Shown: one piece after another, positions 7,671-62,358 of the stretch | Layout of the letters: the number at the start of each line of letters is the position of its first letter | Position numbering within the stretch: the stretch's first letter is position 1 | DNA from: Candidatus Aminicenantes bacterium | Lineage (GTDB): Bacteria > Acidobacteriota > Aminicenantia > Aminicenantales > UBA8522 | Length of the DNA: 64,000 bases | NCBI GenBank assembly: GCA_037444845.1 | Contig: JBBILQ010000004.1 | Coordinates: 12,745 to 76,744, forward strand | Direction: 5' to 3' | Notes under the pieces: model-generated | Told to the model about the DNA's origin: nothing | The model's input: only the letters and a program-made list of their open reading frames with translations | Databases searched by the model: none | Translations under genes and position numbers: made by a program

Positions 7671-8087
7671 TTAGGTTTTATACGGGCTCGGCCCTAACTT
7701 TTTAACCTTCTCGGTAAACTCCCTCACCACCTGGGCGAACCTCGGCCCCTCAGACGCCGAAACCCATTCCAACTTAAACCTGTCCGCTTCCAGGCCAAAA
7801 TCTTCCAGCATCAAAACGATTGCCTCGGCTCTCTTCTCCGCCTTGAGGTTTCCCTCCTTGTAGTGGCAGTCGCCGGGATGGCAACCGCACATCAGCACCC
7901 CATCCGCTCCCTTGGTCAGGGCATCAATCACTAAATTGGGATGGACCATCCCTGAGCACATCACTCTGATGATCCTTATATTGGGAGGATACTGCAACCT
8001 TGACACCCCGGCCAGGTCCGCTCCCGCATAGGAACACCAGTTGCAGCAAAAACTCACGATTAAGGGCTCAAACGCCTCACTCATCAT
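7671..8087 (-). CDS. mvhD: MvhD-like subunit (methyl-viologen-reducing hydrogenase delta / FlxD-like)
   Basis: FCCNWCSYAGADLAG...RVMCSGMV...CGCHPGDCHYKEGN, the MvhD signature. Confidence 0.9.
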   Translation of the reverse strand: MMSEAFEPLIVSFCCNWCSYAGADLAGVSRLQYPPNIRIIRVMCSGMVHPNLVIDALTKGADGVLMCGCHPGDCHYKEGNLKAEKRAEAIVLMLEDFGLEADRFKLEWVSASEGPRFAQVVREFTEKVKKLGPSPYKT

Positions 8088-14926: not shown

Positions 14927-15817
14927 TTACTGGGCGTGCGCATATGTTCCCAGCAACTCGGGCACTTTTGTCTTGGACATAAGACCATGAATATCTTCTC
15001 CCACCTTCAGGACTGGAGCCAGGCCGCAGCATCCGATACAACGCACGGTCTCAAGCGTAAAAAGCATGTCCTTTGTCGTCTCCCCGTTTCTTATCCCCAG
15101 CTCACTTTCAAGGGCCCCGACAACTTTGCCGGCGCCCTTGACATGACAGGCCGTCCCGAGGCAGACCGTGATGATATGCTTGCCCCTCGGCTCCAGGCTG
15201 AAAGCGTTATAAAAGGTGGCGATTCTACAGACCACACTCAAAGGCATGTTGAGCTGATCAGCCACGTATCTCAACACGGGCTCGGGCAGATAGTTATACG
15301 TATCATTGGCTTTCTGCAGGATGGCGACCAGCGGCCCTTCTATATCTTTATATTCTTTGATGATTCTGTTCATGATTTCCATATCTTTAACGGAAATATC
15401 AATTTTGTCTTTTTCCGGTGTCACATAAATGATATGGTGAACCGGGCAATTCTCCGTGCAGATACCGCATCCCGTGCACTTCTCCTCGTCCACAAACCTC
15501 GGTCTCTTCCGGATTTTTACTTTAAAATGGCCAGCTGTTCCTTCGATGCTCTCGATGTCGGCAAGGGAAATCACTTCAATGTCCTTGTGTCTGCCCACTT
15601 CAACCAGCCTCGGCGCCATCGTGCACATGGCGCAATCGTTCGTCGGGAAAGTCTTGTCGAGTTGAGCCATGACGCCGCCGATGGATGGTTGGCTATCGAC
15701 CAGATAAACCTTAATGCCTGATTCAGCCAGGTCAAGGGCTGCCTGCATACCGCCAATTCCGCCGCCAACAACCAGGGCGGCACCAATTTTTTTATTTTCC
15801 TCTGCGTTCATTGACAT
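14927..15817 (-). CDS. Fusion of an HdrA N-terminal FAD-binding/ferredoxin segment with a NuoE-like 2Fe-2S domain
   Basis: ALVVGGGIGGMQAALDLAESG...DKTFPTNDCAMCTMAPRLVEV (HdrA N-terminus), CTGCGICTENCP, then NuoE-like CLGTACHVKG...CIGCCGLAP. Confidence 0.7.
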   Translation of the reverse strand: MSMNAEENKKIGAALVVGGGIGGMQAALDLAESGIKVYLVDSQPSIGGVMAQLDKTFPTNDCAMCTMAPRLVEVGRHKDIEVISLADIESIEGTAGHFKVKIRKRPRFVDEEKCTGCGICTENCPVHHIIYVTPEKDKIDISVKDMEIMNRIIKEYKDIEGPLVAILQKANDTYNYLPEPVLRYVADQLNMPLSVVCRIATFYNAFSLEPRGKHIITVCLGTACHVKGAGKVVGALESELGIRNGETTKDMLFTLETVRCIGCCGLAPVLKVGEDIHGLMSKTKVPELLGTYAHAQ

Positions 15818-20910: not shown

Positions 20911-21165
20911 AATAGGCGGATGTTTCTCCTGTCAAGGCGAGCACCCATTGCGTGCGTGGCATCCCATGATAACTAACCTGGACTATTCACGAAATGAAAG
21001 GAAAAAATCCCCTCTCCCCATGTGGGAGAGGGTCGGGGTGAGGGGGATCATTCAAAGATTCCCCCTCCCCCCAGGGGAGGGGCCTGCTTTCTGGCATAAT
21101 TTGTGAATAGGTCAGGCTAACTGAGATCACTTCGTTTCGCTCGCGATGACAAAGTCCTAACGGCA
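20911..21165. repeat. Repeat-C palindromic element (REP-like) split by a nested MITE-A insertion
   Basis: Left half gtcaaggcgagcacccattgcgtgcgtggcatcccatgataa, right half ctgagatcacttcgtttcgctcgcgatgac. Together they align to the uninterrupted copy at 38620..38696. Confidence 0.7.
20977..21116 (+). mobile_element. MITE-A copy 2 (140 bp; 14-bp internal deletion relative to the other copies) with CTAA target duplication
   Basis: ctaa at 20973..20976 and 21117..21120; inserted within repeat C. Confidence 0.85.
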
Positions 21166-27107: not shown

Positions 27108-27890
27108 ATGGAAAAAGAAAAGTTGAAAATCGGCATCTACGAGCTCACCGGCTGCGCCGGCGACGCTCTCCTCATTGTCGACTGCGAAGAGGAGCTTGTG
27201 AACATCTTCAAGGCCGCCGACATCGAGTCCTTCCTCATGGCCAAGAGCGATAACCGCAACGGCGAGCTCGACGTGGCTCTGGTGGAGGGCTCGGTCAGCA
27301 CGGAAAACGAAAAGGAAGAGCTCCTGGATATCAGAAAACGGTCCAAGGTTGTCGTGGCCATAGGCAACTGCGCCTGCGTCGGCGGCATCCAGGCAGCCTT
27401 CCTGGACAAGAAAGACTGGGAGAAGAACTTCAAGAAAGTTTACGGTGCCACCGCCTTCACCCACACCAAACCCGCCCAGAGCAAGCCTATCGACGCGTAC
27501 ATCCGCGTCGATCATTATCTTCCTGGCTGTCCCATCGGGAAAGAGCAGTTTCTTTCGACCTTCGCCCGGATGGTGGAAGGGAACCCGCCGGAGCTTTACC
27601 GCTTCCCCGTTTGCGTCGAATGCAAATGGCATGAAAACGACTGTCTTCTCAACAAAGACATCCCCTGTCTGGGTCCTTTGACATTGGGCGGCTGCGGGTC
27701 CGTTTGCCCGAATCATGCCATCCCCTGCTTTGGCTGCTGGGGCCCGACAGAGGAGGCCAATATGACTTCCGAATACCGCCTTCTCTTAGAAAAAGGCTTT
27801 GACCTCGAAATGATCAAAAAGAGAATGGCCACCTACTCCGGAACGAGGATTGCCGAGTTCTTCGCGCAATTCAGAAAGGAGAAAAGATGA
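27108..27890 (+). CDS. hydD: NiFe hydrogenase small subunit, group 3b (HydD-like)
   Basis: Start MEKEKLKIGIYELTGCAGD with RBS AAGGAGG; GNCACVGG and other cluster Cys motifs. Confidence 0.85.
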   Translation: MEKEKLKIGIYELTGCAGDALLIVDCEEELVNIFKAADIESFLMAKSDNRNGELDVALVEGSVSTENEKEELLDIRKRSKVVVAIGNCACVGGIQAAFLDKKDWEKNFKKVYGATAFTHTKPAQSKPIDAYIRVDHYLPGCPIGKEQFLSTFARMVEGNPPELYRFPVCVECKWHENDCLLNKDIPCLGPLTLGGCGSVCPNHAIPCFGCWGPTEEANMTSEYRLLLEKGFDLEMIKKRMATYSGTRIAEFFAQFRKEKR

Positions 27891-29623
27891 AGACGATCAG
27901 CATCGACCACCTCGCCCGCGTTGAAGGCAATGGCGGCATTTCCGCCACCATCGATGGCCGCGTCGTCACCGAAGTCAAGTTCACGGTCAACGAAGGCCCG
28001 AGACTCATCGAGCGCCTGACGGTCGGCAAGACGCCCGAAGAGGACGTCAGCATCGCTCCCCGGATATGCGCCATCTGCACTCTTTCTCATAAAAACGCCG
28101 TCCTCCGTGCCATGGAGAACGCCCTGGGTGTCAAGGTTCCGGCGAAAGTGACTCTCCTCCGGGAGCTCATGCACATGGGTGAGTTCATCGAAAGCCATTC
28201 CCTGCACGTGTTTTATCTTGCTCTCCCCGATTATGTAGGTTTTCCCAACGCCATTGCCATGGCCTCAAAATTTCCGCTTGAGGTCAAGATCGCCTTAGAG
28301 ATGAAGCAGTTCGGCAACCACATCATGAAAGTCCTGAGCGGCCGGTATATCCACGGCGAAAACCCGGTCATCGGCGGGTTCGGGAAGTACCCCGCCAGGG
28401 ATGAGCTCATCTGGATCAAAAACCGGGCGTTCCAGTTCATGCCCTTTGTTATCAGGACGGTGGACCTGTTCTGCGGCCTTGGCTATCCGGCCATTCCCGA
28501 GGAGGATACCGTCTACGCCTGTTGCGAGCCGGAAGACGGAAAATACGGTCTCTGGGGGGACGAGATCATCCTGTCCACGGGAGAAAAAATCAACAGGGAT
28601 GACTACAGGAGTTTGACAAACGAATTTTTCGTCCCGCATTCCTTTTGCAAGCGCAGCCGGTACAAAGGAAACACGTATTCTGTGGGCGCCCTCGCCCGAG
28701 TCAACGTCCTGGGCGAGAGGCTCGAGGGGGAAACAGGCAAGATGTTCAAGAAATATTTCAACGCCCGCTGGAAAAGGAACCCCCTCTTCCACAACGCTGC
28801 CCAGGCTCTGGAAATTCTTTACGCTTTTGAAAAAATCCCGGAGCTGGTGGATGAAATTCTCAAACACCCAGAGAATCCAGCTTTGGTTCCGTACAAATCC
28901 AAGAGCGGCAAAGGGACAGGCCTGGTGGAAGCTCCCCGGGGCCTCCTCGTCCATCATTATGAAATAGCAGACGGCCTTGTCGCCGACGTCGACATCATCA
29001 CTCCGACCGCTCAGAACGCCGAAGAGATCGAACGATATTGCTACATTGCAGCCCAGAAGCTCTTAGATGAGGGGAAAGAGAGCGAGATCAGAGACAGGAT
29101 GGAGCTCGTCGTCCGGGCGTTTGACCCATGCATCAGCTGTTCGGTCCATATGGCCGAGGTCAAAAAGGCCCCGGCCGAGAACTGGAAAATCAAGCTGGCC
29201 GGGCTCCTTAAAGCCAACCCTGTTTTTATCGGCGTCGGGAAAGAAGGCCGGTCGGACGACCGGGCCGGCCTTGAACTGGCCTTAGAGATGAGGAAAGCCG
29301 GCGTCAAAGACGTCTACCTGGAACAGGAACTCGAAGAGGGCCACATCCTGGAAAAGGCCTCCCGGCGGCCTCTCATTTTCCTGGACATCGCGAACATGGG
29401 AGAACAGGCGGGTAAAATTGCCGTGCTGCCTCTCCAGCACGTCTTCTGGAACTCCGTGCTAAGCCACAGACTCTTGCCCGCCCTCTCGAACAAACTGACC
29501 CACGACGAGATCAAACACGCCTACATTCTCGGCATCCAGCCCAAATCTGTGGAAGAAGGAGACGACTTGTCTCGGCCGGTCCGGCGGGCCCTAAAAAAAA
29601 TCCTGAGTGAAACGATAGATTAA
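27887..29623 (+). CDS. hydA: NiFe hydrogenase large subunit (HydA-like) fused in frame to a C-terminal maturation endopeptidase (HycI/HybD-like) domain
   Basis: RICAICT N-terminal motif; DPCISCSVH C-terminal Ni-binding motif at about aa 410. After a 24-aa linker comes VFIGVGKEGRSDDRAGLELALEM (compare the protease motif LGxGNxxxxDDGxG), then LIFLDIANMGEQAGK and THDEIKHAYILGIQPK. Confidence 0.8.
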   Translation: MKTISIDHLARVEGNGGISATIDGRVVTEVKFTVNEGPRLIERLTVGKTPEEDVSIAPRICAICTLSHKNAVLRAMENALGVKVPAKVTLLRELMHMGEFIESHSLHVFYLALPDYVGFPNAIAMASKFPLEVKIALEMKQFGNHIMKVLSGRYIHGENPVIGGFGKYPARDELIWIKNRAFQFMPFVIRTVDLFCGLGYPAIPEEDTVYACCEPEDGKYGLWGDEIILSTGEKINRDDYRSLTNEFFVPHSFCKRSRYKGNTYSVGALARVNVLGERLEGETGKMFKKYFNARWKRNPLFHNAAQALEILYAFEKIPELVDEILKHPENPALVPYKSKSGKGTGLVEAPRGLLVHHYEIADGLVADVDIITPTAQNAEEIERYCYIAAQKLLDEGKESEIRDRMELVVRAFDPCISCSVHMAEVKKAPAENWKIKLAGLLKANPVFIGVGKEGRSDDRAGLELALEMRKAGVKDVYLEQELEEGHILEKASRRPLIFLDIANMGEQAGKIAVLPLQHVFWNSVLSHRLLPALSNKLTHDEIKHAYILGIQPKSVEEGDDLSRPVRRALKKILSETID

Positions 29624-29718
29624 GTAAGAATATGATCGATCCATTTATCTCTTGTGAGCCTTCCCCTAAAGTGATAGAATCGTTCTCCTGAAAAGAAGTC
29701 GAGGAAATATTGGAACAA

Positions 29719-29739
29719 GCCTGGGGAAAAATTCCCCAG
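29719..29739. promoter_or_regulatory. Palindrome CCTGGGGAAAAATTCCCCAGG: candidate activator binding site and/or hydA terminator hairpin
   Basis: Perfect 9-bp inverted repeat with a 3-nt spacer, about 95 nt after the hydA stop and about 120 bp before the sigma-54 promoter. Confidence 0.45.
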
Positions 29740-29848
29740 GCCGCTTGGATATCGCAGGGCCCAAAAGAGAGAAGAGATGGCTGTTAGCTCTATGTTATTT
29801 AATATCAATAACATAAATATTCCACTCGGGCCACCTCCCCCGCACGTT

Positions 29849-29864
29849 TGGCACACAAATTGCT
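29849..29864 (+). promoter_or_regulatory. Sigma-54 promoter TGGCAC-N5-TTGCT upstream of the receiver gene
   Basis: tTGGCACacaaaTTGCTt is a perfect consensus match; the RBS GAGGA and ATG 29891 follow. Confidence 0.75.
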
Positions 29865-29890
29865 TTACTTCCCTCCCTGAGGAATATGCG

Positions 29891-30262
29891 ATGAGCAGCG
29901 GAGAAAAGAGAATCCTGATCGTCGACCCCGATCCTGTTCAGAGGCGGGACTTGGCCCAGTTTCTTAAGAATGAAAACTACGATCCCGAAACAGCCAGAAA
30001 CCTCTCCGAGGCCATCAAGAAAGTATCCGGGAGAGGTTTTAGCTGTCTGGTGATGGATACTCATCTTCCCGAGATGAAAGGCTATGAAGCTGTTTCCATT
30101 CTCAAGAACCTCGACCCGGGGCTCAAGATCATCATGACGACGAAGAAAAACACCAAGCGGCTTGAGGCCAAAGTCCGGGAGCAGGACATCTTCTTCTATT
30201 TTATCAAGTCCTTCGGCAAAGATGAGCTGAAGCTTGCCATAAGAAACGCTTTTAACAAGTAA
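29891..30262 (+). CDS. Single-domain response regulator (CheY-like receiver)
   Basis: Start chosen at MSSGEKRILIVDPD; phospho-acceptor Asp context CLVMDTHLPEMKG; conserved K in IIMTTKK. Confidence 0.7.
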   Translation: MSSGEKRILIVDPDPVQRRDLAQFLKNENYDPETARNLSEAIKKVSGRGFSCLVMDTHLPEMKGYEAVSILKNLDPGLKIIMTTKKNTKRLEAKVREQDIFFYFIKSFGKDELKLAIRNAFNK

Positions 30263-30275
30263 AGGAGGAAAGGCA

Positions 30276-30683
30276 ATGAACAAAAGCGCCCAGAAAATCT
30301 TGGTCATCGACGACGACCCCGATTTCTTGGCTGCGGTGACCCCAATCTTGAAATCAGCCCTTTACGAAGTTGCGACGGCCACAAACCCAAAGGAGGCCAA
30401 GGAAAAGATTTTTTCCGAAAAGCCCAACCTCATCCTGCTCGACATCATGATGGACAGCCTTTTTGACGGCTTTTCCCTCTGTCACGCCATTAAGACTTCG
30501 AAGGAATTTAGAGACTATAAAGATACACCCATCATTTTCATTTCAGCCGTAAAGGAGATCGCCGGCACCAGGTTCCAGTTCAAGGGCGATGAAGAGGGCA
30601 TGGCCGGTCCCGATGACTATATCGACAAGCCGGTCAAGCCCGACGACCTGCTGGCCCGGATCGCCAAACTCCTCAAAAAATAG
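30276..30683 (+). CDS. Single-domain response regulator (receiver) with a divergent C-terminal half
   Basis: KILVIDDDPDFL...LILLDIMMDS...IIFISA; strong RBS AAGGAGG. Confidence 0.75.
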   Translation: MNKSAQKILVIDDDPDFLAAVTPILKSALYEVATATNPKEAKEKIFSEKPNLILLDIMMDSLFDGFSLCHAIKTSKEFRDYKDTPIIFISAVKEIAGTRFQFKGDEEGMAGPDDYIDKPVKPDDLLARIAKLLKK

Positions 30684-30744
30684 AATTCCTCCGCCTCCTC
30701 CATTCCCTTCCCGCTGCCCCAGGAAAAGAAAGTAACTTCTATAA

Positions 30745-30866
30745 TGGGCGCAGGGGGCTGCTCTAAAGCCCCCGTAGCGGAGGGGGGACCCGTCGGCTTC
30801 TCCGACGGGGGGAACCGACGGGACTGGTTCCCCGGGGCGCGGGGGCCAAGAGCAGCCTCCTGCGCC
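30745..30866 (+). ncRNA. Repeat B copy 1: about 122-nt structured element (outer 19-bp stem enclosing three hairpins), candidate small RNA preceded by TATAAT
   Basis: Second copy at 52253..52376 shows compensatory changes in the stems. G-U pairs are possible only on the plus strand. TATAAT lies at 30739..30744, immediately upstream. Confidence 0.5.
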
Positions 30867-30961
30867 CTATCCAATGATATAAGTAGAAATGCTTAGCGGA
30901 GTAAAATCCGGGCTGAAATGAATCGCGATTTGCGCTAAAATAGAGCTCCAGGAGAAAAGCC

Positions 30962-32074
30962 GTGGCCGAAAAAAACCCGATTGTTCTTGTTATTGACGAC
31001 GAAGAAGCCATGCGGGATTCGTGCTCCCTCATCCTGGCCAAAGGCGGGTTCACCGCCGTGACAGCCGAAGACGGCCAGGTTGGGCTGGAAAAAATAAGGG
31101 ATCTCAAACCCGACGTCGCTCTCATCGACCTGAAGATGCCGGGCATCAGCGGGTTCGACGTCCTGGAAAAAACGAAAGAGATTGACCCCCAGCTCATTCC
31201 CATCGTCATCACGGGATATGCGACCGTGGATTCTGCCGTCGAAGCGATGAAAAAAGGCGCTTATGACTTCCTGCCCAAGCCCTTCACTCCCGAGGAGCTC
31301 CGGATTATCATCAGCCGGGCGCTGGAAAGGCGCCGGCTGGCTATGGAGGCCGAGACACTGCGGCGCGAAAAGAAGCTCATGGAGGATAATTTCATCACCA
31401 TGGTCACCCACCAGCTCCGCAGCCCGCTGGTGGCCATCCAGCAGTATTTCGAGGTCATCCTGGCTGGACTGGCCGGCCAGGTCGATAAAACCCAGCAGGA
31501 GATGATCCTGAGAGCCCGGGAGCGGCTGGACAGCCTGCTCCGGCTGATCAACGACTGGCTGGACCTGGCCAGAATCGACCGGGGCCAGATCGTGGGCAAG
31601 CTCAAACCCGTGGCTCTCGACAACCTGCTCAAGAAGCAGGTTGAATTTTTAGAGTCGCTGGCGAAGGAGTATGAGGTGAGCCTGGAACTCGAGCCGGCCA
31701 AAGGGCCAGCCGCTGTGCTGGGCGATGAGCAGATGCTGGACCAGGTCTTCTCCAATATCATCACCAATGCCATCAAGTACAACAAGCCGAAAGGCTCAGT
31801 GACCATCTCGATGGGTCATGAGGACAGCTTCGTCGTCGTCAAGGTAAAGGACACGGGGATCGGGATTGCCAGGGAACACCTTCCGTTCATCTTCGACCAA
31901 TTCTACCGTGTCAGCCGCAGGGAGGACCAGAAAATCAAGGGGACTGGCCTGGGGCTTTCAATCGCCAAAAAAATCGTCGAAGCCCACAACGGCTCGATAG
32001 ACGCGGAGAGCGAGCCGGGTCAAGGCTCCACGTTCAGCGTCAGGCTTCCCCGGCCGGAAGATGAAACAAAATGA
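30962..32074 (+). CDS. Hybrid response regulator-histidine kinase (N-terminal receiver, HisKA, HATPase_c)
   Basis: IVLVIDDEEAMRD...IDLKMPGISG; HQLRSPLVAIQQY; DTGIGIAREHLPFIFDQFYRV...GLGLSIAKKIVEAHNGSI. Confidence 0.85.
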   Translation: MAEKNPIVLVIDDEEAMRDSCSLILAKGGFTAVTAEDGQVGLEKIRDLKPDVALIDLKMPGISGFDVLEKTKEIDPQLIPIVITGYATVDSAVEAMKKGAYDFLPKPFTPEELRIIISRALERRRLAMEAETLRREKKLMEDNFITMVTHQLRSPLVAIQQYFEVILAGLAGQVDKTQQEMILRARERLDSLLRLINDWLDLARIDRGQIVGKLKPVALDNLLKKQVEFLESLAKEYEVSLELEPAKGPAAVLGDEQMLDQVFSNIITNAIKYNKPKGSVTISMGHEDSFVVVKVKDTGIGIAREHLPFIFDQFYRVSRREDQKIKGTGLGLSIAKKIVEAHNGSIDAESEPGQGSTFSVRLPRPEDETK

Positions 32075-32550
32075 AGACTCTTGTTTTAGGCCTGGGAAAC
32101 GAGCTCTACGGAGACGACGGAATCGGCGTCCAGGTCATTCGCCATCTCAGGGAGGAAATGACAAAAATGCCGACCGGGGATTTCCAGGATGTCGACCTGG
32201 AAGAATGCTCCCTGTCCGGCCTCGCCCTTTTAGATGTTATCGTCGGCTACGACCGGCTCATCCTCATCGACACCATCAAGCGGGAGGCCCCCCAAACGGG
32301 AAGAATCCAGGTTTTGGGAGAGGCCGATATCCGGGCCGTTCCCGGCCCCTCTCCCCATTACGCCTCGGTGCCGCAGGCGATCGAAATCGGGCGAAGCCTC
32401 GGCCTCCACATGCCCTCCCGCATCCAGGTCGTGGCCGTCGAGGCAAAGAACCTTCATTCTTTAGGAGAAAAGCTATCGGAGGAAATGGAAAAAAACATGC
32501 CGGCCATTGCCGAGAAGGTCAAAAAAATCTTGAGAAAAACAGAGGATTAG
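32071..32550 (+). CDS. hycI: Hydrogenase maturation endopeptidase (HycI/HoxW/HybD family)
   Basis: LVLGLGNELYGDDGIGV signature; start overlaps the upstream stop (ATGA). Confidence 0.85.
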   Translation: MKTLVLGLGNELYGDDGIGVQVIRHLREEMTKMPTGDFQDVDLEECSLSGLALLDVIVGYDRLILIDTIKREAPQTGRIQVLGEADIRAVPGPSPHYASVPQAIEIGRSLGLHMPSRIQVVAVEAKNLHSLGEKLSEEMEKNMPAIAEKVKKILRKTED

Positions 32551-32553
32551 GAA

Positions 32554-33225
32554 GTGGACAGAAAAGAGGTTCTTGTCCGCGAGGAGATCTTAGCCTCAAA
32601 CAAGAAAATAGCCGCTGAAATCCGCGCCCGGCTGGAAAAAGAAGGCATCCTGACCGTCAATCTCCTCAGCTCGCCGGGAGCAGGCAAGACCTCGCTCTTG
32701 GAGAGAATCGCTGAAGCTTTCAAACTGAATCACCGCATGGCTGTCATCGAGGGCGATATCGAAACTGACCTGGACGCCGAGCGGATCCGGAAGAAGGGTG
32801 TGACGGCCTGGCAGATCACCACCGGCGGCGCCTGCCATCTCGAGGCCAGGATGGTCGCCAGGCTCATTCCCGAAATTCCCTCCGAGACCAAGTTTTTGTT
32901 CATCGAAAACGTCGGCAACCTTGTCTGTCCGGCCAGCTACGACCTGGGAGAAAGCCTGCGCTGCGTCCTCCTCTCACTGCCCGAGGGCGACGACAAACCA
33001 AAGAAATATCCCAAGGCTTTTGCCACGGCCGACTGCCTCATTTTCACCAAGGCCGACCTGATGCCCGTCGTTCCCTTCGACCTGAGGCGGGCGGAAAAGG
33101 AAGCCCTGGAGATCAACCCGAAGCTCCGCGTTTTCCTGACCTCTGCCCTCAGGGGCGCGGGCATTGCCGAGCTTGTCCGCTTCTTTATTGAGCGCCGCGT
33201 CAACATGATCCAGCGTCATGCATGA
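32554..33225 (+). CDS. hypB: Hydrogenase nickel-incorporation GTPase HypB
   Basis: P-loop SSPGAGKTSLL; ENVGNLVCP; SYD...; probable GTG start. Confidence 0.85.
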   Translation: MDRKEVLVREEILASNKKIAAEIRARLEKEGILTVNLLSSPGAGKTSLLERIAEAFKLNHRMAVIEGDIETDLDAERIRKKGVTAWQITTGGACHLEARMVARLIPEIPSETKFLFIENVGNLVCPASYDLGESLRCVLLSLPEGDDKPKKYPKAFATADCLIFTKADLMPVVPFDLRRAEKEALEINPKLRVFLTSALRGAGIAELVRFFIERRVNMIQRHA

Positions 33226-33562
33226 ACTTTCCATCATCGCCAGCCTGTTTGAAATCCTGGAAGAAAAAGCCCAGGAGCAGAAAGCGAACAAAATCGTCCT
33301 CGTCAAGTTAAAGGTCGGAAAACTGGCGGGCGCCGTCCCCGAGTTCCTCGAAACCGCCTTCAATATTTACAAGGACGGAACAATCGCCAGAGAAGCGATC
33401 CTGGAAATCGAGGAAGTCCCCCTCAGGATTCGCTGCCGCACGTGTCAGGCCATTGCCGAAAGGGATGACTTTGTCTTCGTCTGCCCGGCCTGCGGTTCGA
33501 CCGTCCTCGAAACTCTCGAAGGGACCGAGCTTCTCCTCGAAAAAATCGCCCTGGAAATCTAA
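33218..33562 (+). CDS. hypA: Hydrogenase nickel-insertion protein HypA
   Basis: MHELSIIASL N-terminus; zinc-finger CRTCQ...CPACGS. Confidence 0.85.
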   Translation: MHELSIIASLFEILEEKAQEQKANKIVLVKLKVGKLAGAVPEFLETAFNIYKDGTIAREAILEIEEVPLRIRCRTCQAIAERDDFVFVCPACGSTVLETLEGTELLLEKIALEI

Positions 33563-36500
33563 CCCCCCAGGAGGCCTTCGATCTCCGCAAAAATCTGCTC
33601 ATCACGGAAATGATTCTGCTGGGAAGCGGCCGCGGGACAGGCGGCGACACACGTCCCGCAGCCCTTGCAGAGCGCCTCGTTCACCTTGGAGATGCCTTCG
33701 TCCTCAGAGAACTTGATGGCCGTGTAGGGACAGAGGTCGTTGCAGAGGCGGCAGCCGGAGCAGAGCTCCGGGTCGATATAAGCCTGGATGGGCTCGATTT
33801 CAATCTCTCCCTTAGAAATATAGGCCAGAATGCGCGCGGCCGCCGAGCTCGCCTGGGCCACGCTGTCTGGAATGTCCTTCGGCCCTTGACAGCATCCCGC
33901 GATGTATATTCCATCTGTGGCCGTGGCCGTTGGGTCGAGCTTGGGATGCTTCTCCAGGAAGAAACCATCAGGGCTTCGGCTGATGGAAAAGAGCCGCTGG
34001 ATGTCGCCCGCGTCGGGTTGAGGCTCGATGGCGTTGCAGAGCACGACCATGTCAACGGGGATTTCCCGGTACTTTTTGATCAGCGTATCTTCGCAGCGGA
34101 TGAGGAGAGTCCCTTCTTCTTTTTTGGACCAGCCAGATTGAACCACCTCGGCCACTTTGCCCCGAATGACATTCACCCCCTCTTCTAAGATCCGGGAATA
34201 GAACTCTTCATACCCCTTGCCAAAGGCTCTCATATCAATGTAGAACTCGTAGACTTCAGCGTCTGTCCTGTCTTTGATGAGATGGGCAAACTTGAGCGCA
34301 TACATGCAACAGACACGGGAGCAGTAGGGGTGATACTTTTCATCCCGGGATCCGACGCAATGGATGATCCCGATGGCCCTCGGCTCCTGGCCATTTTTCA
34401 AGACAATCCTTCCCTGGGTTGAGCCTGTGGAACTCACGATCCTCTCAAATTCAAGGCTTGTGTAGACGTTATCGAATTGGCCGTAGCCGTAAAGGCTGAG
34501 GGCCTTGGAATTTAACGTTGCGTAGCCTGTGGCCAGGAGGATCTGCCCGACCTTAATCTCCTTGATCTCATCCTTCATGCGATGGTCAATGGCTTTCGGC
34601 TCGCAAACGCGCACGCACTCTTGGCATTCAACACAGATGCCGCAATTCAGGCAGCGTTCCGCTTCTTTCATCGCCTCTTCCTCGGTTAAGCCCAACTCCA
34701 CTTCTTCAAAGGTTTTGAGCCTTTTCTCCAGGCTAATTTCACTCATCTTCGTCCGGGGCACCCTGGGAGTTTCCTTGAAGGCTGGAGCATACCGATGAGG
34801 ACGGAAGCTCTCATCCCTTTTCGCCAGCTTCTTCGCCCGGGGAGTTGTGAAATCCGCGAGAGGCTCGTTGTTGAGGTATTTATCGATGGCTTCAGCGGCG
34901 CGCTTCCCGTCGCTCATGGCAGCGATCACGGTGGCCGGCCCGAGGACAACATCTCCTCCGGCAAAAACTCCTCTGATGTTGGTCTCCAGCGTCTCCGGGT
35001 TGACCTCGAGGGTGCTCCATTTGGTCACGTTGAGGGGAAATTTACCGGTTAAAAAGTCAACAACAGGCTCCTGGCTGACGGCAATGAGCAATGTGTCAAA
35101 GGCGAGATCATGCTGGCTTCCCTCAACTGGCACCGGCCGGCGCCGGCCGCTCGAATCAGGCTCTCCCAGTTCCATGCGGATGCATCGCACGCCGCAAATT
35201 TTTCCTTCTTTTCCTAAAACTTCGACCGGAGCCACGAGATATTGAATGGCGACTCCTTCTTCTTCAGCCGCAAGAATTTCCGCTTCCTCGGCCGGCATCT
35301 CCTTCCTGGTTCGCCGATACAAGACGGTCACCTCCCTGGCTCCGCAGCGGAGAGCGGTCCTGGCGGCGTCTACGGCCGTATTTCCCCCTCCCACAACAGC
35401 CACTCTCTTTCCCACAGGCTGAGGCCTTCCGAGGTTGATATCCCGCAAGAAATCGACGCCGTGCAAGACGCCTTCCAGGTTTTCTCCCGGAATGGCCATT
35501 TTTAGGCTTTTGTGGGCTCCTGTGGCAATATAAATCGCCTTGAATCCCTGGCTAAAAAGATCGTCGATGACGAAGTCTTTTCCCAGAGCCATGTTTGTCT
35601 TTATCGTCACCCCCATCCGTTTGATAAAGTCAATCTCCATATTGAGGATTTCCCGGGGCAAACGGTATTCAGGAATGCCCAAAATCAGCATGCCTCCCGC
35701 CACCTCGTGCTTTTCAAAGATGACGGGTGAATAGCCTCTCAAGGCGAGCTCATGGCCGCAAGCAAGGCCGGACGGCCCTGATCCGATAATGGCAATCTTC
35801 TCTTTCTTTTTCTTCTCCGCCTTGGGAACTTCGACAAGCGCCTTATTTTTGAGCTCCCAGTCCATGACAAACCGCTTGATGTTTTTTATGGCTAAAGGCT
35901 CATCGGCAAACCGGCGGCTGCATTCCGACTCGCAGGGATGGTAGCAGACGCGGCCGCAGACGAAGGGCAAAGGATTGTCCCGGCGAATGAGGCGGGCCGC
36001 TTCGGCAAACCTCCCTTTGGCAACAAGGGCGATGTATCCGGCGGCCTCCTGGCCGATGGGACAGGTCTCGCGGCAGGGGGGGCGTTCTTCCTTATCGATA
36101 AGGTAGGTGTTGGGAACAGCCTGGGGAAAGGTCCTGTAGATGGCGCTCCTTGCAACCTGATTCTCTTCAAATGAGTTGGGAACAAGGATTGGACAGGCTT
36201 TAACACATTCCCCGCAGGCGGTGCATTTTTCGCTGACATAGCGGGCCTTTTTCTTCACCTTGACGGTGAAATCGCCGATGAAGCCCTGGACATCCTCGAT
36301 TTCGCTCAGGCTGAGGAGCTCGATGTCCTCGTGCTGGGCGACGGAGACCATCTTTGGAGTGAGGATGCAGGCGGCGCAATCCAGGGTGGGGAAGGTTTTA
36401 TCGAACTTGGCCATCTTGCCGCCGATCGTCGAATCCCGCTCGACAAGATACACTTTGTTTCCGGAATCGGCGATCTCCAGAGCAGCCTGAATCCCTGCGA

Positions 36501-45484: not shown

Positions 45485-45519
45485 CTTTCTCCGCTATCAA
45501 TATTAATATAAACGCATTA

Positions 45520-45695
45520 AGTGTCATTGCGAGGAACGCAGTGACGAAGCAATCCGACGCAGTCGCCGCGAGCGCAGCGTGGCGGTCTCATGCCTATTTC
45601 GCACTTGATGAGATCCCTCGCCATGCTCGGGACGGCCCAAAGGGCCGGATTGCTTCGCTCCCGCCGGTCGCTCGCAATGACCATGTAATATTATT
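45520..45695. repeat. Long imperfect palindrome related to repeat C, between pstS and the Rrf2 gene
   Basis: Left arm gtcattgcgaggaacgcagtgacgaagcaatcc pairs with right arm ggattgcttcgctcccgccggtcgctcgcaatgac; internal ttgatgagatccctcgcca resembles the repeat-C core. Confidence 0.55.
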
Positions 45696-45767
45696 AATTA
45701 CGTTTGTATTAATACGATATAATCGATAGACAAACTAAACTATAAATAAAAAAAATATAGATCAGCG

Positions 45768-51735: not shown

Positions 51736-51751
51736 GCCCCCTTCTTATTTG
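51721..51751. terminator. Bidirectional hairpin terminator between convergent rdgB and comEA
   Basis: gaagaagggggc-tga-gcccccttctta then tttg; the rdgB stop codon forms the loop. Confidence 0.55.
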
Positions 51752-52056
51752 CCCGTGCTTTCAGCGCCGACAGTGATCAGGTCTTTCAGCTGATTATACG
51801 TTTTTTCGCCGATCCCCCTGACCTTCATGATCTCTTCGATTTTCCTGAAATTCCCGTGCTCCTTCCTGTAGTCGATGATCCTCTGGGCGACCTGCGGCCC
51901 GACCCGGGGCAGCTTCTGGAGTTCACTTAGTGAGGCGGTGTTGATGTTGATTTTCTGTTCACCGCCTTTGGACCCAGCCTGCTGGGCGATGAGAGGAAGG
52001 AACGACAGGCCCACGGCCAGGGCAATGACCAGGGCTACGACCTTTGAGCTTTTCAT
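51745..52056 (-). CDS. comEA: ComEA-like helix-hairpin-helix DNA-binding protein
   Basis: Signal peptide; KININTASLSELQKLPRVGPQVAQRIIDYR...IGEKT HhH motifs. Confidence 0.8.
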   Translation of the reverse strand: MKSSKVVALVIALAVGLSFLPLIAQQAGSKGGEQKININTASLSELQKLPRVGPQVAQRIIDYRKEHGNFRKIEEIMKVRGIGEKTYNQLKDLITVGAESTGK

Positions 52057-52252
52057 GATAACCTCCTTTCGTCTTCCCCTTATGCAAACCGGAGGCCAAA
52101 GCCTGGATGTTGTATAGTTACTTTATTTTCAATGAGATAGAATTTTGTCCGGCTGGCTGATGTCAATGTCCGTTGACTTTTTCTGCCGCCGCGATCAACC
52201 GGCGTTGACGCAGGAGTGCGGGAAGAATCTCCAAATATGTGATTTCTATTAT

Positions 52253-52376
52253 GGGTGCAAGGGGCTGCTCTGAAGCCCCCGTAGCGGAGGGGGGACCCAT
52301 CGGATTCTCCGATGGGGGGAACCGACGGGACTGGTTCCCCCGGGGCGCGGGGGCCAAGGGCAGCCTCTTGCGCCCA
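52253..52376 (+). ncRNA. Repeat B copy 2 (structured element, candidate small RNA) preceded by TATTAT
   Basis: About 90% identical to 30745..30866, with compensatory substitutions in two stems. Confidence 0.5.
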
Positions 52377-52412
52377 ATTGAATCACATAACGGAGATATC
52401 TACAGGAGTGTT

Positions 52413-53543
52413 TCATTCGACCGGGGGAAGCGTCAGCCCTTCTGGCTCGAAAATGACCCGTCGCTCCCCTTCCTCCACATGGCCAAGGTCAAGGAGTTCG
52501 TACCCGGCTTTTTTGCCCGCTTCAATTGTTTTATCCACTTCTTTTTCAGGCGCGAAGATATAGAATCCCACCCCCCAGTTGAACGTGGTCAGGCAGTCTT
52601 TCAGGCTGACGCCAATTTCTCGCATGAACAGGAAGAGGGGCGGTATCTCCTCCACCCATTTTCGGATTCTGTACGTGAATGGCCTCTTGTCATAGGCAAT
52701 CTTGGAAATCCCTCCGCCCGTGCCTCCCAGCAGAGAGTGCACCTCCACGCCGTTTTCCAGGAGCGCCTCAACCAGCCTCACATAAGAGCGGGTTGGGATA
52801 AGCGCCTCATCTCCCAGCGTGTTTCCGTTCGGCAGCTGATGGAGAAATTTGTCCTTAAGCGTCAGGGCTCGCTTGATCACTAAGGAAATCCCGTTAGAAT
52901 GGAGCCCGGACGACGTCGCTCCGATGACGTGATCGCCCGCACCGAGCTTTTCTCCTGTGACCATTCTTTCGGCAGGCGCGATGATTCCCGTCACGCACCC
53001 CGACAGGGAAGGAGCGCTCTTCACGGGCGGCTCAGGTTTGATCAAATAGCGGAGGGCCGGAGATTCGCCGGCGGGAAGGGCCATGCCGCACATCTCGCAG
53101 GCCTTAAAAAAACTCTCCGCCAAGTCATGGCTTCTCTTTTCATCCATGAACCACTCGCTGTCTCCGGCAGCCACCTCATCCGTGTAGATGACAGGAAGAG
53201 CGCCCTGACAAATCACGTCGTTGGCGGCCATCAAAGCTGTATCAATGCCAATGCCCTCGTAATACGTCCTTCCTGTCCCCGCATGGTGATACATCCATTC
53301 CGCGATCCAGTTCTTGTTGCCCAGGCCTTCCTGAGTCTTGCACCAGAGGTGAGACCCAGCCCCGCGATAGCGGAAAACAACGCCGTGCAGCCCCAGGCTT
53401 TCAGCCTCGATGTAGACATCTCTCTTGTTCGGAAATTCGAGCGTCCGCTTTCCGGCCTCAACCATGGCCATCTTGAAGGGCTCGATCTTTGCGTAGTCAA
53501 CCCCGGCCTTGGCGTACTCAGATTTCGGCTTTTCCTTGGACAT
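52413..53543 (-). CDS. purM: AIR synthase (PurM)-like protein
   Basis: Start chosen at MSKEKPKSEYAKAGVDY (PurM-like N-terminus); AIRS N- and C-terminal domain character. Confidence 0.55.
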   Translation of the reverse strand: MSKEKPKSEYAKAGVDYAKIEPFKMAMVEAGKRTLEFPNKRDVYIEAESLGLHGVVFRYRGAGSHLWCKTQEGLGNKNWIAEWMYHHAGTGRTYYEGIGIDTALMAANDVICQGALPVIYTDEVAAGDSEWFMDEKRSHDLAESFFKACEMCGMALPAGESPALRYLIKPEPPVKSAPSLSGCVTGIIAPAERMVTGEKLGAGDHVIGATSSGLHSNGISLVIKRALTLKDKFLHQLPNGNTLGDEALIPTRSYVRLVEALLENGVEVHSLLGGTGGGISKIAYDKRPFTYRIRKWVEEIPPLFLFMREIGVSLKDCLTTFNWGVGFYIFAPEKEVDKTIEAGKKAGYELLDLGHVEEGERRVIFEPEGLTLPPVE

Positions 53544-53544
53544 A

Positions 53545-54648
53545 TCAGGCCTTTTTCTCGAGCTCTCCCATGTCTGTCTCTGAAGGCCGGTTGGGAATGA
53601 CCGCGATTGTTCTGCCTTTGTACTCGAACACCTGTTTGTCATCATCTGTAATTTCGGCGATCATTTCCGCTTTGACCCCTTTGGAACGGATGACGGACAA
53701 GACGTCATCAACGTCTTTCCCTTCCACCTGGACCGCCATTCTGCCCTGAGTTTCACAGATCATGATTTCTTCCGGCGTGATCTCGTCAACCTTAACCGGG
53801 ACCTTGGATAAGTTGACAGATGCTCCAAAACCTCCGTACCTGGCTGATTCGCAAACCGCCGCGCCGATGCCGGCTGCGCCAAGGTCAGAGCACGCCTTTA
53901 TCTTTCCCGTGCGAAACGCGGCCAGGGTTGCCTCCATGACCTGCCTTTCTTCCTCAAAAAGAGCGACGGCAGGCCTCATTTCCTTGACCAGGCCTGCCCT
54001 GTAGAGAGTGTCGTTGCCGTCGTTTCCGGTCTGGCCGATGAGGATGACTTTATCTCCGGCCGACTTGGCGGGCTTCGTGAGCGGCCTGGCCGTGACCAAC
54101 TTTCCGATCACTGAAACAACGACGGCCGGAACGATGTCGGAGAATGAGGTGGAAAAACCGCCCCCGATGATAAACACATCCATGGCGTGGCACATGTCCC
54201 TCAGGCCTTTGACCATCAAATTCACTCTTTCCTGGCTCGTCATTTCGACGCACTTTCCGCAGGTGCACCTTCCCTCAAACCCACAGACGCCGACGATGAC
54301 CTTTTCATGCAAAGGCCGGGTCCCGATAAAATTCATGAGAAAAATTGGCCTTGCTCCCATGGCCAGAACATCGCGCATAGCCCCGCCTGCCCCTGTTGCA
54401 GCAGCGTCGTACGGCCTCGGAACACAGGGAGAACAATGGCTTTCCATTTTGGCAACGAATAATGCGTCCGTCTCAGGAAATTTGATGACAGCCGCATCAT
54501 CTCCCGGGCCGACGATCAGAGCGCCAGGAAACATCTTGCTGACCTGGTCATTTAGGGCCTCAATAGCCCTAAAATCAATCGCCTTATCGATGTTGTGATG
54601 AAGATGGACAAACAGAGCATGCATTAAAGCTTTTTCGATGGTGTTCAT
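53545..54648 (-). CDS. AIR synthase-related (PurM/PurL/HypE superfamily) protein
   Basis: GDDAAVI and GGAMRDVLAMGARP motifs of AIRS-domain proteins; no HypE C-terminal PRIC motif. Confidence 0.55.
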   Translation of the reverse strand: MNTIEKALMHALFVHLHHNIDKAIDFRAIEALNDQVSKMFPGALIVGPGDDAAVIKFPETDALFVAKMESHCSPCVPRPYDAAATGAGGAMRDVLAMGARPIFLMNFIGTRPLHEKVIVGVCGFEGRCTCGKCVEMTSQERVNLMVKGLRDMCHAMDVFIIGGGFSTSFSDIVPAVVVSVIGKLVTARPLTKPAKSAGDKVILIGQTGNDGNDTLYRAGLVKEMRPAVALFEEERQVMEATLAAFRTGKIKACSDLGAAGIGAAVCESARYGGFGASVNLSKVPVKVDEITPEEIMICETQGRMAVQVEGKDVDDVLSVIRSKGVKAEMIAEITDDDKQVFEYKGRTIAVIPNRPSETDMGELEKKA

Positions 54649-59035: not shown

Positions 59036-59288
59036 GATCGTGTTTTCCAGCCCAAACGGCCGCCTCTATTCAAGACGACTGACCCCGCCTCTTCTTTCTC
59101 AGCCTCTGGAGCATCAACCCTGATGAAAATACTCTAAGTATGAATATAAAGACTTGGATGAGCGCCTAATTATTGACTGGTAATCCATTCCATCTGAGGC
59201 GGAAGCGTTCCCAGTGAGATGAATTGAAAGACATCCCTTAAGATCCCAATAGTCTGGGGGATATTGTCATAGGCGAGTTTTCTATTAA

Positions 59289-59442
59289 CCTGGACTATTC
59301 ACGAAATGAAAGGAAAAAATCCCCTCTCCCCATGTGGGAGAGGGTCGGGGTGAGGGGGATCATTCAAAGATTCCCCCTCCCCTCTATCCCCTCCCCCCAG
59401 GGGAGGGGCCTGCTTTCTGGCATAATTCGTGAATAGGTCAGG
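59289..59442 (+). mobile_element. MITE-A copy 3 (154 bp) flanked by TTAA / TTAG
   Basis: Identical architecture to copies 1 and 2; intergenic between dprA and the nucleotidyltransferase gene. Confidence 0.85.
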
Positions 59443-59714
59443 TTAGATAAGTTTTAAGCATTCATCCCTGCTGGCATCGATAAGGAGTATAAACCGGCAG
59501 CTCGGAAAGCGTCAAGTTGCCGGAGAAGGAATTGGTTCTTGGTTGTACCAGATCTATATAAAACGTCATAAATAGTCGGGCGCAATTTTAGGCGTTATCA
59601 CTCCTGCCTTTATGGATAGATCACGTTGGTGAAGAAGTAAACTGGCGCCTTCGAAGGCAGTTCCTTATTCGAAAATGATAGCAACACAGGGTCCTGCCGA
59701 ATTTTCGCCTTGCT

Positions 59715-61966: not shown

Positions 61967-62203
61967 GTGACCTTCCTTCCCGCCGATATCTTAAGTGGCA
62001 TGAGAACGGGTCCTGTCCCGGCGCGAGCTTCTCGACCCCAGCGTGGCGCGCGCCCGGCCGGACCCGGACGGTCAGCAATGTTTTCTCCTTCTTCCCGCCC
62101 GCTTCTTTTCTCTCCATGGTGGATTCCCGGCGGCGACGCCAATATCGCAATTTACTATAAATGGAGCAATTTCTATCGCGATGTCATTTTACACAAATTC
62201 GCA

Positions 62204-62243
62204 GATAGAATCACCCGGCGGGTCCTGTCGCGGTTCACCCCCG
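62204..62243. promoter_or_regulatory. Conserved 40-nt motif D, copy 2, in the long 5' leader of nupC
   Basis: gatagaatcacccggcgggtcctgtcgcggttcacccccg; 37/40 identical to 2718..2757. A third GGGTCCTGTC occurrence lies at about 62008. Confidence 0.4.
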
Positions 62244-62358
62244 AACCACGCCACCCATCGGGTGTAATCCCTGTCATGCTCATTTAGTGGCAAAGCAAAC
62301 GCTTTTGTTGGTGAAAATTCCCAAAAGGCAATTTCGGGGTGCTTTCCGGTGTTTTTTG

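Follow-up and report, generated by a model that had tools for sequence, protein, structure and literature searches.

A mobile 184-nt palindromic element with a conserved structured centre, inserted behind a PurM-like gene of Candidatus Aminicenantes

The window analysed here is a stretch of 64,000 nucleotides from a Candidatus Aminicenantes bacterium (contig JBBILQ010000004.1), and its subject is a palindromic sequence, repeat B, of which the window holds exactly two copies, at 30746-30868 and 52253-52376, both on the plus strand. They were found with a 29-mer from copy 2 at up to three mismatches, a search that gave 0 matches in 100 shuffles. The two copies are 91% and 87% identical over two segments according to a repeat finder, with which direct alignment agrees, and they score 144 and 137 bits against a covariance model of the family. 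Copy 2 lies in a 356-nt spacer, antisense to the two minus-strand genes on either side of it, a PurM-like gene and comEA. The original prediction had described this placement correctly, as gene calls and the repeat search showed, and had taken it to favour an autonomous small transcript over a cis-acting leader. Copy 2 is the core of a 184-nt transposable element of the miniature inverted-repeat kind (MITE) inserted after the PurM-like gene, and its antisense placement is explained by transposition, a conclusion held with high confidence. In the features given here, P1 is the outer stem of the repeat-B module, the core is what P1 encloses, and the sequence outside P1 is termed the shell.

30746-30868, plus strand: copy 1, the same P1-plus-core module; its shell spans about 30722-30896, with uncertain boundaries, degenerate ends and no visible duplication.
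51745-52056, minus strand: ComEA-like gene with a helix-hairpin-helix domain (HHH_3); TIGR00426 matches above its cut-off.
52211-52218, plus strand: left target-site duplication CAGGAGTG, present singly as CACTCCTG (gene strand) in the empty sites of the related loci L121 and L122.
52219-52402, plus strand: the whole element, a MITE of the subfamily "shell ii", 184 nt long; together with the 8-bp duplication it makes up the 192 nt that the window has in excess of L121 and L122.
52219-52246, plus strand: left terminal inverted repeat CGGGAAGAATCTCCAAATATGTGATT..., paired with 52379-52402 in the fold; this type of flank recurs in related copies, with the consensus GGAAGCATCTCTAAATATGTGATC.
52247-52252, plus strand: TATTAT, a -10-like hexamer within an asymmetric internal loop of the folded rod.
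52377-52402, plus strand: right terminal inverted repeat ...AATCACATAACGGAGATATCTA, imperfectly paired with the left terminus and abutting the right duplication.
52403-52410, plus strand: right target-site duplication CAGGAGTG; 2 nt separate it from the stop codon of the PurM-like gene.
52413-53645, minus strand: PurM-like gene with Pfam domains AIRS and AIRS_C, stop codon at 52413-52415; TIGR00878 (purM) matches at 152 bits, below its 236-bit cut-off, so that the label "PurM-like" is a fair one.

The history of the site could be read from orthologous loci. A search of metagenome contigs with the PurM-like protein yielded 80 such loci at 76-94% identity, 71 of them with at least 250 nt of downstream sequence, and by the covariance model the element is absent from 68 of these 71 informative loci. 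In L121 and L122, the closest relatives, whose proteins are 91% and 94% identical and whose PurM-like/comEA order is the same, the spacer measures 164 nt as against 356 nt in the window, and alignment leaves a single 192-nt block unique to the window, right after the stop codon. Where L121 and L122 read ...TAAaCCACTCCTGCGTC..., the same strand of the window reads ...TGAaaCACTCCTG, then 184 nt, then CACTCCTGCGTC..., with the 8-bp repeat occurring once in the relatives and twice in the window, where it flanks the insert. The insertion point lies 2-3 nt downstream of the PurM-like stop codon. The original prediction had proposed comparing the flanks for target-site duplications and folding both strands, and the first of these comparisons proved decisive: because copy 2 is part of a mobile-element insertion, with an empty site and an 8-bp duplication, its orientation relative to its neighbours is accidental.

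A MITE is defined by its small size and lack of coding capacity, by inverted repeats at its ends and a duplicated target site, and by its many copies and polymorphic insertion sites (PMC10969869). The copy 2 element is shorter than 500 bp and non-coding, has inverted termini and a duplication, and belongs to a family with multiple copies and polymorphic sites. It holds no conserved reading frame, since the insertions and deletions in its hairpin A are not multiples of three. The three orthologous PurM-like loci with an element (L175, L176 and L189) carry another subfamily in the opposite orientation, about 120 nt past the stop codon. At L175:3785-3915, and also in L176 and L189, the PurM-like downstream spacer was thus targeted independently in another lineage; the shell there is truncated, with TATTAG alone remaining on the 3' side.

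The site of copy 1 is empty in the orthologous spacer of L010, whose neighbouring proteins are 64-82% identical, and one short read-assembly contig breaks off within copy 1. Target-site duplications of MITEs fade with age (PMC10969869), and the shell of copy 1 looks older than that of copy 2, given its degenerate ends and the lack of a visible duplication. Copy 1 sits inside a [NiFe]-hydrogenase neighbourhood (27887-33562) that comprises the large subunit (27887-29623), two single-domain response regulators, a hybrid response-regulator/histidine kinase (30962-32074), a HycI-like protease, a CobW/HypB-like protein and HypA; in L010 the hydrogenase gene order is identical and the repeat is missing.

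For the whole copy 2 element the fold is a single long rod, with -114.3 kcal/mol (z = -10.2) for the plus strand against -97.8 kcal/mol for the minus strand. Folding of both strands of the modules themselves gave -94.9 (plus) against -76.2 kcal/mol (minus) for copy 2 and -100.3 against -87.2 kcal/mol for copy 1, with no shuffle as good in either case; the z-scores, plus strand first, are -7.1 and -5.8 for copy 2 and -8.1 and -7.2 for copy 1. The plus strand is therefore the more stable in both window copies. The claims that copy 2 retains its structure and its plus-strand G-U pairing hold, with three G-U pairs and zero A-C mismatches in its outer stem on that strand and a G-U bias throughout the family. 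Of the two flanks, tatgtgatt (52238-52246) is the complement of aatcacata (52381-52389), and they pair in the fold of the longer element, so the palindrome is extended by them as had been proposed; the pairing in fact reaches further, to 52219 and 52402, and is bracketed by the 8-bp direct repeat.

The wider family was retrieved from a collection of species-representative genomes with an exact pattern, CCGTAGCGGAGG and CCGACGGGAC separated by a gap of 18-40, which matched at least 118 stretches. These copies come from at least 26 metagenome-assembled genomes (MAGs), the number represented among the first 80 matches, and several of the MAGs hold at least 5-8 copies each, and all the matches listed are from Candidatus Aminicenantes MAGs or from MAGs titled Eubacteriales/Clostridiales. 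No similar sequence was present in the viral contigs, plasmids and phages searched. Rfam 15 gave no family at or above its gathering threshold in the window or on the element in 18 related loci, and a permissive search returned at best chance-level matches, EBv-sisRNA-2 at 25.9 bits (threshold 41.8) and Pxr on the minus strand at 20.6 bits (threshold 80). A literature search did not find the core sequence strings in a relevant context, and its top-ranked results on Aminicenantes repeats, MITEs or structured RNA made no mention of Aminicenantes. Repeat B is a previously undescribed repeat family of Aminicenantes, and a new MITE family with an unusual conserved structured module. One of the related loci also carries a cobalamin riboswitch (RF00174, 103 bits; L018:6228-6406, minus strand), about 2 kb from its repeat-B copy and unrelated to repeat B.

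Copies are almost always intergenic and their orientation is random: by crude open reading frame (ORF) calls, 25 lie between divergent genes, 22 antisense to tandem genes, 15 between convergent genes and 11 sense to tandem genes. Neighbouring genes are on the same strand as the element in 91 cases and on the opposite strand in 98. The 118 nearest neighbour proteins fall into 125 different Pfam families, each found in at most three proteins, with no transposase among the 25 commonest families listed. Clustering of 721 ORFs revealed no recurrent protein partner, only spurious ORFs spanning the repeat itself and paralogous large outer-membrane-type proteins, and none of the 118 loci had the conserved synteny of a "master gene". 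Random orientation and functionally unrelated neighbours exclude that repeat B is a leader or riboswitch or has a dedicated partner in an operon, so that the rejection of a cis-leader in the original prediction stands; the use of the antisense position as evidence for an autonomous gene does not, the position being that of a mobile-element insertion. A looser role for the element in cis, as a terminator or stability hairpin of the PurM-like mRNA or as a regulatory leader of comEA, would suit its position 2-3 nt past the PurM-like stop, its very stable hairpin on both strands and the median distance of 71 nt from copies to a neighbouring 3' end, and MITE transcripts can affect mRNA fate in other bacteria (PMC10969869). 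It is very improbable all the same, as the element is missing from the same spacer in the closest relatives, has no T-run on either strand and shows no preference at gene ends: within 150 nt past a gene's 3' end, 27 copies are sense and 34 antisense, and ahead of gene starts 34 are sense and 31 antisense. Neighbouring genes are functionally unrelated, and an effect of this kind would in any case be a by-product of insertion.

Outside P1 the copies carry unrelated shells, at least three in number, all of which enclose the same P1-plus-core module.

Shell (i): contains ...TAATACAAACGCAATAAATAAAGTGACA..., bounded by (A/T)A(T/C)TAATAC, total length about 197 nt.
Shell (ii), the type in the window: consensus termini G(T/G)AAGCATCTCC, with direct repeats of 8-10 bp on either side.
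Further shell: GGTTCTTCTCC type; other shell types exist besides.

Exact direct repeats of at least 8 bp flank 11 of the 98 other copies at symmetric positions, as against a mean of 1.27 and a maximum of 4 in shuffled flank pairings. Each type of shell has these duplications at its outer edge, which makes every shell a mobile unit. The ends of IS66-family insertion sequences are inverted repeats of 20-30 bp that start with GTAAGCG and are flanked by 8-bp direct repeats (PMC11946415), an example of an IS66-type end being GTAAGCGTCCGG... (PMC12888890). The shell-ii consensus shares GTAAGC with these ends, and copy 2 has an 8-bp duplication, against 9-11 bp in other copies. The match covers only six terminal bases, and the ends of copy 2 itself are degenerate (GGAAGAATCTCC and TAGATATCTCC); no IS66-type transposase was found in the retrieved loci or among the neighbouring proteins listed. 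Mobilisation by an IS66-type enzyme is a lead, and a rather doubtful one.

Two further observations concern the shells. At 45503-45713 the window contains a MITE-like palindrome with shell-(i) termini, TTAATATAAACGCATTAAGTGTCA ... TGACCATGTAATATTATTAATTACGTTTGTATTAA, which flank the repeat-B module in other Aminicenantes genomes; its interior is a different GC-rich palindrome, GTCATTGCGAGGAACGCAGTGACGAAGCAATCC ... GGATTGCTTCGCTCCC...GCTCGCAATGAC. In one MAG, MFD01872.bin.1.66 (L034, L043, L069 and L105), the module is set within a larger repeat unit of about 400-500 nt, with extra flanking hairpins (CACCACCGCAGCTTTGCTGCAGTGGTGG; GCGGGTTTGACTCGCCGGGGCAAACCCGC) and a small insertion in the 3' junction.

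The module within the shells has the following parts in copy 2, the pairing figures being those for the 105 copies realigned as described below.

52253-52271, plus strand: 5' arm of stem P1, pairing with 52357-52375; 19 of 19 pairs with compensatory changes, 92.1% of cells paired.
52275-52281, plus strand: 5' arm of stem P2, GCCCCCG, pairing with 52348-52354; 7 pairs, 94.1% paired, 2 changed on both sides.
52282-52295, plus strand: junction strand UAGCGGAGGGGGGA, near-invariant in the conservation profile and partly fixed by the search pattern.
52296-52316, plus strand: hairpin A, CCCAUCGG-AUUCU-CCGAUGGG, of variable length; 6 of 8 pairs changed on both sides, 97.5% of cells paired.
52317-52339, plus strand: hairpin B, GGGAACC-GACGGGACU-GGUUCCC, stem and loop near-invariant; 99.7% of cells paired, 4 of 6 pairs constant.
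52340-52347, plus strand: 3' junction strand CCGGGGCG, from the conservation profile; one G-run is absent in the variants L011 and L062.
52348-52354, plus strand: 3' arm of stem P2, CGGGGGC, partner of 52275-52281.
52357-52375, plus strand: 3' arm of stem P1, partner of 52253-52271.

About 110 full copies were aligned, and 105 were realigned with a covariance model made for the purpose, which comprises P1, P2 and hairpins A and B. RNAalifold on a plain MAFFT alignment gave a poor core structure, and the consensus structure was supplied by hand instead. In the resulting alignment, standard pairs fill 94.7% of the pair cells, against 80.7% in shuffles (0 of 500 as high) and 40-55% in controls with slid partners. 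Changes on both sides occur in 29 of the 40 pairs: P1 contributes all of its 19, hairpin A 6 of its 8, and P2 and hairpin B 2 each, out of 7 and 6 respectively. Compensation is seen, for example, in P2 of the L012 group, which has UCCCCG with CGGGGA, and in hairpin A, where a G-C pair is changed to A-U between copies 1 and 2; the variants of hairpin B are G-U compatible ones only (GGUUCCUC, GAGCC). According to the minimum-energy fold, the G-run at 52289-52295 might pair with 52335-52341 in place of hairpin B, which is too invariant to discriminate. A pairing of the hairpin-B loop with hairpin A was also considered and was dropped, as it shows no covariation between the window copies.

Conservation is distributed very unevenly over these parts. 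P1 has a mean pairwise identity of 0.51, hairpin A one of 0.80 and the remaining core one of 0.89; in that remaining core, 44 of 64 positions are at least 97% invariant, 22 of those 44 being set by the search pattern. The module thus has a near-invariant centre of about 75 nt, with a G+C content of 72-76%, inside a stem P1 that is free in sequence yet still paired; the folded core is much better conserved than junk DNA would be expected to be. Sites shared between genomes tell a similar story: in four same-site pairs the core is 0.91-0.99 identical (0.97-0.99 in three of them) and the shells 0.78-1.00, and in a fifth pair, which is further diverged and less secure, identity stands at 0.86 for the core and at 0.50-0.60 for P1 and the shells. 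Among unusual copies, L019:60-208 has hairpin A swapped for a perfect 22-bp hairpin, L063:3922-4161 (minus strand) has a 110-nt insertion inside hairpin A, and L059:3774-3910 and L065:1200-1269 (minus strand) are truncated copies of the module.

This pattern also bears on whether repeat B could be a REP/REPIN element spread by a RAYT (Y1/HUH) transposase. The core does hold GTAG within CCCCCGTAGCGG beside a GC-rich hairpin, and a strand-asymmetric hairpin, dispersed and intergenic, would be expected of such an element. REP/REPIN elements lack terminal inverted repeats and target-site duplications, however, and both are present in repeat B; there the inverted pair is conserved and the centre variable, which is the opposite of what is found here. 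With no recurrent Y1-transposase-like neighbour among the 25 commonest families listed for the 8-kb loci, such an origin is scarcely credible.

Which strand is under constraint can be asked from the mismatches in the stems. In a G-C pair, a C-to-U change on the folded strand gives G-U and a G-to-A change gives A-C, so that a double-stranded palindrome is expected to show both equally. The model alignment has 135 G-U against 45 A-C (34:1 in hairpin A, 12:3 in P2 and 89:40 in P1), with G-U in excess in 25 pair columns and the reverse in 6. Taking one count per cluster at 90% identity leaves 93 G-U against 39 A-C (p = 3e-6), and cluster majorities stand at 57 against 20. In a strand-neutral DNA alignment of the arms, the isolated mismatches of P1 are 66 G-U against 35 A-C, and the outer inverted repeats have 94 against 81, with many transversions; a count that includes the unpaired junction is 113 against 113, the bias becoming visible once the count is limited to isolated mismatches within helices. 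Because the outer repeats share any local mutation bias, the asymmetry of P1 and core is best read as selection for plus-strand folding. Judged by these sequence comparisons, the plus strand is the constrained one, and it would be selected to fold, most simply as RNA.

Another explanation of the same data is that repeat B is a purely selfish DNA palindrome with no role as RNA, whose conservation is due to the transposition machinery or to a host protein that binds or bends DNA, possibly as a single-strand DNA hairpin. Its mobility has been demonstrated, promoters and terminators were not found at the window copies, orientation is random, and the inverted repeats GGGGAACC-N9-GGTTCCCC and CCCGTCGG-N5-CCGACGGG could be protein sites. 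A G-T mismatch is, moreover, the least harmful one in DNA hairpins too, better tolerated than A-C, so that the bias by itself is no proof of RNA. An element with inverted termini and a duplicated target moves, however, as double-stranded DNA, in which the two strands are equivalent, and this gives no reason for a 3:1 bias. Recognition by a transposase predicts constant termini, whereas here the termini differ between subfamilies and the centre is constant. The loop of hairpin B is invariant, unlike the typical spacer of a dimer site, and the core is kept in resident same-site copies, where selection for transposition does not act, although gene conversion could explain this. The balance of neighbour strands also speaks, as a weak proxy, against an effect of the replication strand. 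On the whole this explanation is possible and rather doubtful.

The TATTAT upstream of copy 2 was reported correctly, at 52247-52252 and abutting the stem; its reading as a -10 box was not supported, as it has no -35 partner, a promoter scan was blank at both window copies and no excess of such boxes is seen on the plus side across the family. Copy 1 has TATAAT where copy 2 has TATTAT, and the shell-ii relatives have TATGAT or TATAAT. By inspection, one of these three hexamers is present in about half of the shell-ii copies, and it is not conserved family-wide; it is part of the inherited flank of one subfamily. Transcription from a sigma-70 promoter normally starts about 7 nt past the -10 hexamer. 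Since TATTAT abuts P1, a transcript would start within the 5' arm of P1. These facts bear directly on the idea that each copy is a stand-alone small RNA (sRNA) gene, driven by a -10 promoter of its own and retained by the host at a fixed locus, with its flanks as part of the RNA. The G-U bias of the plus strand, the hexamer directly upstream in the window copies (with TATGAT in close relatives), the conservation of the core at sites shared between genomes and the independence from neighbour orientation would all fit. Such a gene is nonetheless unlikely, as copy 2 is an insertion with inverted ends and an 8-bp duplication that is missing from 68 of 71 informative loci, neither copy has a -35 box, a promoter call or a terminator, -10-like boxes are equally frequent on the opposite side, the hexamer would put the start inside the stem, and there is no syntenic "master gene" among the 118 loci. 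The empty site already contradicts this idea as a full account, and the unit is a MITE. A small plus-strand transcript of some kind is possible, and the strand asymmetry would favour it.

Three observations suggest that the module functions as a folded plus strand, namely its conservation at resident sites, its invariant loop and junction strands and its strand bias. As an element driven by a transposase should keep its ends, yet this family keeps its centre, it is not an ordinary MITE. The reading favoured here, which is probably correct as a whole, is that of a MITE carrying a conserved module selected for plus-strand folding. A 184-nt non-coding element with imperfect terminal inverted repeats inserted past the PurM-like stop, duplicating the 8 bp CAGGAGTG; it would have been mobilised in trans by a DDE transposase, the subfamily termini resembling IS66-family ends. 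It belongs to a dispersed Aminicenantes family whose conserved part is the centre, with a 19-bp P1, a 7-bp P2 and a three-way junction made up of the variable hairpin A, the invariant hairpin B and invariant purine-rich strands; this module would be selected to fold as a single plus strand. Its most likely form would be an RNA from the element itself or from read-through, bound by a conserved protein or RNA partner. That the module works as a plus-strand RNA is the reading that suits the comparative data best, at about even odds. More tentatively, the 124-nt module may be a new class of structured RNA, found only in Aminicenantes, that was picked up by, or recruited, several unrelated MITE shells; it would be under purifying selection at resident sites and have its effect in trans, either by binding protein or as a ribozyme, to the advantage of the host or of the carrier elements.

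Several points weigh against the favoured reading, apart from the tolerance of G-T mismatches in DNA. The copies were retrieved with an exact pattern of 22 bases, so the invariance of the core is partly by construction and overstated; more diverged copies do exist, for example L060:641-767. What looks like purifying selection on the core at single sites could also come from gene conversion between copies, and the pair counts rest on an alignment fitted to a plus-strand model. The duplications vary in length from 8 to 11 bp, more than is usual for one transposase, and most copies have none; no full-length insertion sequence or autonomous partner with shell-ii termini occurs in the 1.26 Mb of retrieved loci. 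There is no sigma-70 promoter with a -35 box at either window copy, a result to be read with the caveat that the promoter rules of Aminicenantes may differ from those of the scan, nor is there an intrinsic terminator at either copy, or a T-run on either strand of copy 2. Across 97 copies, -10-like hexamers within 50 nt upstream number 26 on the plus side and 29 on the mirror minus side, with full promoter-like pairs at 3 and 4, and the orientation of copies is independent of the local direction of transcription.

Known RNA and DNA elements were compared with the module and set aside. The UAGCG beside a long closing stem presumably recalls a retron msr-msd; neither window copy has a reverse-transcriptase gene next to it, the genes beside them encoding a PurM-like protein, ComEA, a response regulator and a hybrid kinase. 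Hammerhead, twister and HDV-like ribozymes gave no motif match, and the order of helices is wrong on the favoured strand. Unlike repeat B, 6S RNA is single-copy and detectable with Rfam, a CsrB-type sponge is contradicted by the presence of only two GGA motifs, and for attC sites, plasmid single-strand origins and a G-quadruplex there were suggestive fragments only.

Other bacterial repeats are nearer relatives in kind. Like repeat B, prokaryotic MITEs such as the Correia element of Neisseria and MITEAba12 do not code for protein, measure less than 500 bp and have terminal inverted repeats and target-site duplications, the latter fading with age; they too are scattered between genes in many copies, differ in presence between relatives and would give a transcript that is predicted to form one long hairpin, and some carry -10 or sigma-70-like boxes (PMC10969869). 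Typical MITEs are AT-rich and defined by termini shared with a parent insertion sequence, whereas repeat B has a GC-rich centre that is near-invariant across at least 26 species-level MAGs, termini that fall into unrelated subfamilies and an RNA-like G-U bias in its stems. QMITE1 and QMITE2 of Coxiella burnetii, which give rise to the sRNAs Cbsr3, Cbsr13 and Cbsr16, are likewise MITEs as a possible source of structured sRNAs (PMC10969869); the QMITE sRNAs were detected experimentally, whereas plus-strand folding of repeat B is suggested by sequence comparison. The pneumococcal BOX (boxA-B-C), RUP and SPRITE elements and the enterobacterial BIMEs are modular as well, with the same inner and different outer modules, and occur clustered or nested (PMC10969869). 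They have no sequence similarity to repeat B, whose module is built as a three-way junction and not as a plain hairpin or tandem box. ERIC/IRU elements measure about 127 bp. They are imperfect palindromes with a conserved central inverted repeat, intergenic and co-transcribed in neighbouring mRNAs, whose stability they can alter (PMC10969869); repeat B differs from them in phylum and sequence and has clear duplications and empty sites.

These findings remove a false lead, as the antisense position of copy 2 is that of a transposon insertion and no sign of an independent gene, and the same logic can be applied to other palindromic repeats of this genome. The family inverts the usual pattern of MITEs: its ends are variable and its centre is invariant, covarying and strand-biased, which is the signature used for the discovery of functional RNAs. 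If the module is indeed an RNA, it would be among the very few conserved structured RNAs spread by bacterial DNA transposons. We know of no cultured, genetically tractable member of the Aminicenantes phylum. The copies are ready insertion-polymorphism markers and possible sites of rearrangement for the comparison of Aminicenantes MAGs, and may account for some assembly breaks, such as the contig that ends within copy 1.

Elsewhere in the window, repeat A occurs three times (6846-7005, 20974-21119 and 59286-59445). Its ends are inverted and AT-rich (TAACCTGGACTATTCACGAAAT ... ATTTGTGAATAGGTCAGG) and enclose hairpins of GGGGAGGGG/CCCCTCCCC; the 20974 and 59286 copies share 100% identity over a stretch of 97 nt, and repeat A is probably another, separate MITE family. 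Next to the copy 2 element, two adjacent ORFs of the AIR-synthase superfamily, 52413-53645 and 53545-54648 (both minus strand), overlap by about 100 nt. The true start of the 410-aa PurM-like ORF is probably downstream of the one listed, as many homologues align from about residue 30 on, and the ORF at 53545-54648 resembles a PurL fragment (TIGR01736 at 189 bits, far under its cut-off). A 62-nt direct repeat, TTCGCCGATAGAATCACCCGGCGGGTCC...GGTTCACCCCCG, is found at 2712-2773 and 62198-62259, nearly 60 kb apart and with 84% identity. Diverged duplicates (77-84% identity) and a recurring motif rich in cysteine codons, GCAGCCCTTGCAGG..., were noted for 3630-3914 against 7765-8795 and also at 8162-8325, 15443-15495 and 33634-33686, which suggests paralogous genes for iron-sulfur or cysteine-rich proteins.

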